Positions 11,904 through 12,481 of a stretch of 12,481 nt of DNA are shown piece by piece. Under the pieces are notes generated by a model. It worked only from the letters and a program-made list of their open reading frames with translations, was not told where the DNA came from and ran no database searches. A program made the translations under genes and the position numbers. Source of the stretch: a virus. Taxonomy: Duplodnaviria; Heunggongvirae; Uroviricota; Caudoviricetes. The stretch is taken from IMG/VR virus record IMGVR_UViG_2526164665_000018, one strand, 5' to 3'. The stretch's first letter is position 1; every line of letters starts with the position of its first letter.

Positions 11904-12481
11904 ATGTCGATTAAACATTACGATGTTGTCAGGGCGGCGTCGCCGTCAGACCTTGCGGAAAAGCTGACACACAAACTGAAAGAGGGCTGGCAGCCATACG
12001 GCGGACCGGTTGCCATTACGCCGTACACACTGATGCAGGCGGTGGCTATTGAAGGAGAGCCACAGGTCGGCCCTTCATCTGAGCCGGATTGGTACTACGT
12101 CATCGTACTGGCCGGGCAATCCAATGCCATGGCTTACGGTGAAGGGCTTACGGTGAAGGGCTTCCGCTGCCGGATTCATACGATGCTCCGGATCCGCGCA
12201 TTAAACAGCTGGCGCGCCGCAGTACAGTGACGCCGGGCGGGGCTGCCTGCAGATATAACGATATTATTCCGGCTGACCACTGTCTGCATGATGTGCAGGA
12301 TATGAGTACGCTGAATCATCCGAGGGCTGACCTGAGCAAAGGGCAGTACGGCTGTGTCGGCCAGGGTTTACATATTGCCAAAAAACTGCTCCCGTATATC
12401 CCGAATAACGCGGGGATCCTGCTGGTACCATGCTGTCGTGGTGGTTCGGCATTTACCCAGGGTCGCGGAGGGGACAGTTCA
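11904..12481 (+). pseudogene. nanS-p: 5' part of a prophage sialate O-acetylesterase-like gene (NanS-p-like: DUF1737 N-domain plus SGNH/SASA hydrolase), disrupted by a 14-bp tandem duplication; continues past the window end
   Basis: N-terminus MSIKHYDVVRAASPSDLAEKLTHKLKEGW... with the hydrolase motif LAGQSNAMAYGEG. Tandem repeat gcttacggtgaagg x2 at 12132..12159 shifts the frame, giving a stop at 12230. The +2 frame from 12161 stays open to 12481. GGGAGA Shine-Dalgarno-like motif precedes the ATG. Confidence 0.65.

Follow-up and report, generated by a model that had tools for sequence, protein, structure and literature searches.

Does the tandem duplication that breaks the reading frame of a putative sialate O-acetylesterase gene in this prophage record a real mutation, or is it a fault of the sequence? 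The window, by which we mean the whole stretch of 12,481 nucleotides that was analyzed (IMG/VR virus record IMGVR_UViG_2526164665_000018, Caudoviricetes), ends inside this gene. A preliminary description, made from the letters alone, offered two answers: a recent slipped-strand inactivation or an assembly artifact.

The duplication and the gene it interrupts

Two copies of the 14-mer GCTTACGGTGAAGG, and no others, are present in the window, at 12132 and 12146, arranged head to tail on the + strand (copy 1, 12132..12145; copy 2, 12146..12159, in the register used by the preliminary description). Analysis of the window with TRF returned an array at 12131..12163 (+) with a period of 14, 2.4 copies, 100% matches, no indels, and a score of 66, so the perfect duplication claimed at 12132-12159 is present with both copies located. 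The limits of the array are given by TRF, by the exact positions, and by the single-copy sequence of strain DEC9B. At a 14-base offset 19 consecutive positions repeat, and the register runs five bases (GGCTT) past two full units. This pentamer occurs within the array at 12131-12135, 12145-12149, and 12159-12163 (+). A random sequence of 12.5 kb is expected to contain about 4.6e-5 perfect 14-base tandem duplications, and the expectation for 19 matched positions is 4.5e-8.

The ORF list and the translation agree on a truncated 5' frame of the esterase pseudogene at 11904..12230 (+), with the stop at 12230 where it had been placed before. This ORF starts with ATG and encodes 108 amino acids, of which 82 are native, ending in ...LAGQSNAMAYGEGL, and 26 are out of frame; up to residue 82 the stub matches the intact protein exactly. 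When one 14-base copy is deleted from the window the frame is open from 11904 to the window end, as had been claimed, but the last six codons of this repaired frame read RGGDSS where the native sequence is AEGTFSES. These codons are non-native because of two single-base insertions (12463 T and 12477 G) at the window end. By three-frame translation the remainder of the esterase coding sequence lies in the shifted frame at 12143..12481 (+). This frame is open from a TGA at 12140-12142 to the end of the window, and the gene extends past it. Read mechanically, the shifted frame first offers a start at 12227, a GTG that shares bases with the upstream stop (GTGA). A consensus scan found a terminator-like GC-rich hairpin with a T8 run (11791..11817, +) in the part of the late operon that separates Q from the lysis genes, about 90 bases before the esterase start; this is a pattern match only.

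The full gene was read at the corresponding locus of E. coli O26:H11 str. 11368 (L001), where it occupies 14205..16069 and is 1865 nt long as found. RefSeq lists this gene (ECO26_RS04555) as a pseudogene, 'DUF6645 domain-containing protein, frameshifted', so its status as a frameshift pseudogene is already known from public annotation; no publication describing the duplication was found in open-access text. With one unit removed, the 11368 gene is 1851 nt long and encodes 616 amino acids with no further interruption. Results from Pfam searches of this repaired protein showed DUF1737 (PF08410, 2.1e-15) at residues 4-49, SASA (3.4e-12) at residues 66-262, and DUF6645 (PF20350, 4.7e-18) at residues 467-577; the DUF1737 domain corresponds to 11913..12050 (+) in the window. 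Among PDB entries, residues 60-379 match 3pt5, the E. coli NanS 9-O-acetyl-N-acetylneuraminate esterase (4.6e-122), and residues 421-613 match 6yp6, the NanS-p C-terminal domain (1.1e-29). The C-terminal lectin-like jelly-roll domain was read from L001 and a second related locus (L002), its coding sequence being beyond the window end. The whole protein falls in phrog_143 of PHROGs, and an NCBIfam search of the intact protein returned no family. In the annotation of four related loci (L001, L002, L005, and L007) the gene order is Q, hypothetical, DUF3927, esterase, holin, lysozyme. Together, these data support the assignment of the gene, in its repaired form, as a NanS-p-type sialate O-acetylesterase in the late region of a lambdoid prophage, and the domain and structure matches bear out the earlier naming of it as a sialate O-acetylesterase.

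The gene resembles the NanS-p genes of EHEC (z1466 of 933W; gp84/vb_24B_21 of phi24B) in having DUF1737, SASA, and a lectin-like C-terminus, in its lambdoid late-region place between Q and the lysis genes, in falling over its full length in phrog_143, and in the presence of several paralogues per genome. Unlike these, the window copy is not beside stx, lies in a defective prophage ridden with IS elements, and is inactivated by the 14-base duplication. The repaired protein has 616 amino acids compared with 645 for the 933W type, and no tRNA genes of the kind found upstream in Stx phages occur in the window. The likeness to chromosomal NanS (YjhS, 3pt5) extends to the GQSNAMAYGEGLPLPD block and to the HFSS motif that bears the His; NanS itself has neither DUF1737 nor a C-terminal lectin-like domain, and it is not carried by a phage. 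In EHEC the NanS-p esterases are active and redundant, and they enable growth on Neu5,9Ac2 (PMC8065619).

In NanS the catalytic residues are Ser19 and His301, and Gln18 belongs to the oxyanion hole (PMC9063846); the counterparts in the repaired protein are Ser73, His359, and Gln72. By this correspondence Ser73 is predicted to act as the nucleophile and Gln72 to belong to the oxyanion hole. The GQSN codons (Gly71-Gln72-Ser73-Asn74) are at 12114..12125 (+), a motif covered by the alignment to NanS 3pt5, and the array begins at 12131. The frame shifts nine residues after Ser73. What the two-copy product retains is the whole DUF1737 domain, which scores 1.6e-16 against PF08410 in the 108-residue stub, and the GQSN block; missing from it are His359, almost the entire SGNH fold, and the lectin-like domain. 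The two-copy allele is predicted to have no esterase activity, since the frameshift removes His359 and most of the fold.

Full-length enzyme might still be made if ribosomes were programmed to change frame across the repeat, and the sole point in favor of this idea is that the downstream frame is intact. We give it a negligible probability, because a slippery heptamer (X XXY YYZ) occurs nowhere in 11904..12230 and because the intact allele is widespread with no need for such a device.

Distribution and origin of the two-copy allele

We searched 5426 complete E. coli genomes for carriers with a 128-base probe centered on the duplication, at 99% identity or more. Carriers match this probe at 100%, and the single-copy allele can reach 89.1% at most. 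The two-copy allele was found in 80 of the 5426 genomes, at the same prophage position, and the probe detected it at no other locus in these genomes. The carriers include O26:H11 11368, FWSEC0001, O26 RM10386, O26 RM8426, H19, 97-3250, and 2015C-4944. Serotype is absent from most of the 80 carrier records; those that name one are O26 or O26:H11, with at least one O111:H11. Strains 97-3250 and 2015C-4944 are listed as O26:H11 (PMC10462455). The duplication is also present in an independent IMG/VR contig (L006). By contrast, all 36 of the matching phage records in a collection of 50,697 are single-copy, and the duplicated form was found in none of the GTDB species-representative genomes.

These results bear directly on the possibility that the duplication is an assembly or sequencing artifact of the window. 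That the window does contain private, error-like differences (four homopolymer contractions and two terminal insertions) speaks for such an origin. However, many laboratories contributed to the 80 complete genomes in which these 28 bases recur at this locus, as they also do in the IMG/VR contig; moreover, a 14-base tandem duplication is not an error of the homopolymer type, and single reads are long enough to cross it. An artifact is therefore vanishingly improbable. Since the allele is shared, at one locus, by 80 genomes that were finished independently and by one IMG/VR contig, we reject the artifact, one of the two answers first proposed, and regard the two-copy allele as real.

The other answer, slipped-strand inactivation, is supported. 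DEC9B and F2_407_2_2 carry the same prophage with no IS elements and with an intact single-copy gene (WP_000023271.1, 616 amino acids), and the prophage segments that they share with 11368 are 99.5-100% identical. The 11368 gene minus one unit is identical to the DEC9B gene at 1851 of 1851 bases. Similarly, the single-copy form of the window, taken as the first 750 of 768 bases with the two private terminal insertions left out, is 100% identical over 749 bases to esterases annotated as intact in O111:H8, O111:H- 11128, and E2348/69. From these identities it follows that the duplication is the only lesion in the gene and is the derived state. In the ancestral single-copy sequence of DEC9B, CCATGGCTTACGGTGAAGGGCTTCCG, GGCTT occurs twice, 14 bases apart, so that microhomologies flank the unit. 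From these two pentamers we infer that the 14-base duplication arose by replication slippage between the GGCTT repeats.

Slipped-strand duplications between short direct repeats are seen at classical frameshift hot spots, an example being the CTGG repeat of lacI. The present case is like these in being a perfect head-to-tail duplication with a 5-base microhomology and a later expansion to three copies. It is unlike hot spots of the lacI type in that it appears as a single lineage-fixed event, with no recurrence among the loci and records searched.

The expansion is seen in NZ_OY754853.1, where the same degraded prophage has three tandem units in a 1879-nt pseudogene. The length of the array has therefore changed at least once more. 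In comparison with DEC9B, this three-copy allele (L004, 12823..14701) also has 33 substitutions at gene positions 312..835, confined to a stretch of about 520 bases after the repeat. This patch suggests possible gene conversion from another nanS-p paralogue.

Several other differences are private to the window when it is compared with 11368 and with the colinear strain 10153. Single-base contractions of A/T homopolymers occur at 8315, 9287, 10500, and 10808, and single-base insertions occur at 12463 (T) and 12477 (G), within the last 20 bases. The contraction at 10808 splits a 247-amino acid hypothetical gene, WP_001302581.1 elsewhere, into ORFs at 10604..10879 and 10876..11361. The last 782 bases of the window have no match above 99.7% among the 5426 complete genomes. 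These private indels look like sequencing or contig-end errors, and they leave the conclusion about the 14-base duplication unaffected. There are also seven private substitutions between 1463 and 2499, five of which fall within 94 bases (2406..2499) at the O/P gene boundary. This cluster could be a small recombination patch or a local sequencing error.

Order of lesions in the prophage

We counted genomes with junction-specific probes for each lesion of the prophage, which gives a decay order from nested counts. An IS66 insertion in the S49 peptidase gene was found in 115 genomes and the duplication in 80 genomes with two copies plus 1 with three. An IS629-type insertion beside the truncated cII (window 1301) was found in 32 genomes, another at window 6176 in 28, and the IS-free sieB'/'cII junction of 11368 in 11. 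The 115 genomes with the IS66 junction were checked at the level of the locus in three cases, directly for strain 12690 and by spacing for CFSAN027350 and E2865. Strain 12690 has the IS66 scar, the TolA stop, and a single-copy intact esterase; its erf gene, immunity region, and O gene are intact, and it has no IS629. The esterase probe lies 9079 bases from the IS66 junction in CFSAN027350 compared with 9093 in carriers of the duplication. The most parsimonious reading puts IS66 before the duplication and the IS629 events after it, with a single origin and no reversions assumed from the nesting.

This order bears on the description of the inactivation as recent. No substitutions have accumulated in the gene, which fits, but the allele is inherited, lineage-fixed, and older than the IS629 insertions. 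In the 6.3 kb between the end of the IS and the end of the window, one substitution separates the window from DEC9B and one, at 9499, separates it from strain 10153. With one substitution in 6.3 kb, nearby SNPs cannot separate ancestral single-copy alleles from revertants.

A reversible element would be an alternative to one inherited event. Closely related prophages carry one-, two-, and three-copy alleles at this locus, and slippage can lengthen or shorten a tandem array that has 19 bases of homology. The 14-base repeat might thus be a switch, ON with one copy and OFF with two or three, that toggles one nanS-p paralogue. Like phase-variable contingency loci, this locus has copy-number alleles of a coding tandem repeat that set the reading frame. 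However, known contingency loci have many copies of short units, whereas the unit here is 14 bases with one to three copies only, one ON state, and a distribution that looks clonal. Three, four, and five copies all run into a stop at codon 89 and one copy alone gives an open frame; rescue of the frame by further expansion was ruled out, as a fourth copy brings in an in-frame stop. The counts are nested (115 > 81 > 32/28) as for one inherited event, strain 12690, with IS66 and a single copy, is without all of the later lesions and so looks ancestral rather than reverted, and the prophage is decaying around the gene. We therefore consider a switch very unlikely and retain the reading of one inherited duplication.

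Duplication-carrying genomes have 6-8 places that match an active-site probe and 7-14 that match a 782-base probe. With this many matches per genome, other nanS-p paralogues are present in the carriers. The IS66 insertion cuts the S49 protease/scaffold gene, so the prophage is unable to build heads.

We propose the following sequence of events. The window comes from a lambda-like prophage in decay, in the lineage to which E. coli O26:H11 11368 belongs. In an ancestor of that lineage, slippage between GGCTT pentamers would have duplicated the intervening 14 bases. The extra bases shift the frame after the catalytic Ser73 and end translation at 12230 after 108 residues, which would leave the esterase inactive, and the two-copy allele would then have been passed on vertically. 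The inactivation was probably tolerated, with several other nanS-p paralogues per genome and a prophage that was already crippled. The duplicated array can change length again, with the three copies in one genome as the example. We hold this account as a whole, from slippage and inactivation to inheritance in a decaying lineage, with high confidence.

Our verdict is that this is an ordinary lineage-fixed frameshift pseudogene, belonging to a known family and lying in a decaying prophage. It adds one to the inactivated accessory genes of degrading prophages and has little general biological weight. Its uses are more specific. Two versus one copies give a sequence-defined marker that splits a large O26:H11-type group from relatives with the same prophage, and the duplication combined with the IS66, IS629, and IS600 scars provides an ordered decay series for the prophage. 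The count of functional nanS-p genes in carriers is lowered by one, which bears on copy number in relation to growth on O-acetylated sialic acid. The locus is also a textbook case of a duplication between 5-base microhomologies that later grew to three copies.

The truncated product and other features of the prophage

The stub keeps the whole DUF1737 domain, and this raises the possibility that it is a useful stand-alone DUF1737 protein, perhaps accompanied by an esterase-dead lectin product re-initiated at the GTG at 12227-12230. There is precedent for the first part of this in phi24B, where the DUF1737 of the NanS-p homologue gp84 is reported to be the portion that remains attached to the capsid once the protein is processed (2026 preprint), and most DUF1737 proteins in Pfam are single-domain (2026 preprint). 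PHROGs also contains families made only of fragments, such as phrog_9498 (113 amino acids) and phrog_2036, both of N-terminal fragments. These fit a stand-alone protein; families such as phrog_9498 also show that split or truncated calls of the nanS-p gene are common. The second part has in its favor a 513-amino acid ORF that begins at the GTG overlapping the stub's stop; any product of it would be without the nucleophile. By contrast, no Shine-Dalgarno-like sequence precedes the GTG at 12227, the prophage cannot make heads with its S49 gene cut by IS66, and its head genes are of the lambda type and not of the phi24B type. We consider a useful stub or a re-initiated product highly improbable. 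The lambda-type head genes and the disrupted S49 gene make a capsid role of the stub unlikely in particular. The combined idea of an unstable switch in O26:H11 whose OFF state yields a stand-alone DUF1737 protein like the phi24B capsid-binding fragment has a very small chance of being right. A plain pseudogene remains the reading that we prefer.

Several other features of the prophage were noted in the window. Inverted IS629-type copies of the IS3 family at 1..1301 and 4868..6176 bracket cII-O-P-ren-ninB-ninE, and the window begins about 9 bases inside the left copy. This left copy lies between a truncated sieB and a truncated cII, from which it follows that the immunity region has been deleted. 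We compared the sieB'/'cII junction at window 1296..1315, at 3590..3610 of L001, and at about 95..120 of L005. Strain 11368 is without the left IS copy and 6 flanking bases (GCGTGA) and otherwise has the same junction, which looks like the result of imprecise IS excision. IS-excision enhancer activity is known in EHEC.

Within replication gene O there is a 20-base tandem repeat at 1949..2009, CATCCCTCAAAACGAGGGA, with 3.1 copies, which looks like ori iterons. The degraded prophage is about 67 bases shorter than DEC9B at this repeat, and its O gene is annotated as frameshifted; this counts as a second repeat-mediated lesion of the prophage, beside the 14-base duplication. A gene of the lipid A deacylase LpxR family at 8309..9271 (-), between a truncated antitermination fragment and Q, looks like cargo (a moron) inside the prophage. 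Finally, 11686..11927 (-), which overlaps the esterase start, corresponds to a degenerate 'hypothetical protein' pseudogene of RefSeq in related genomes that is frameshifted and has an internal stop.
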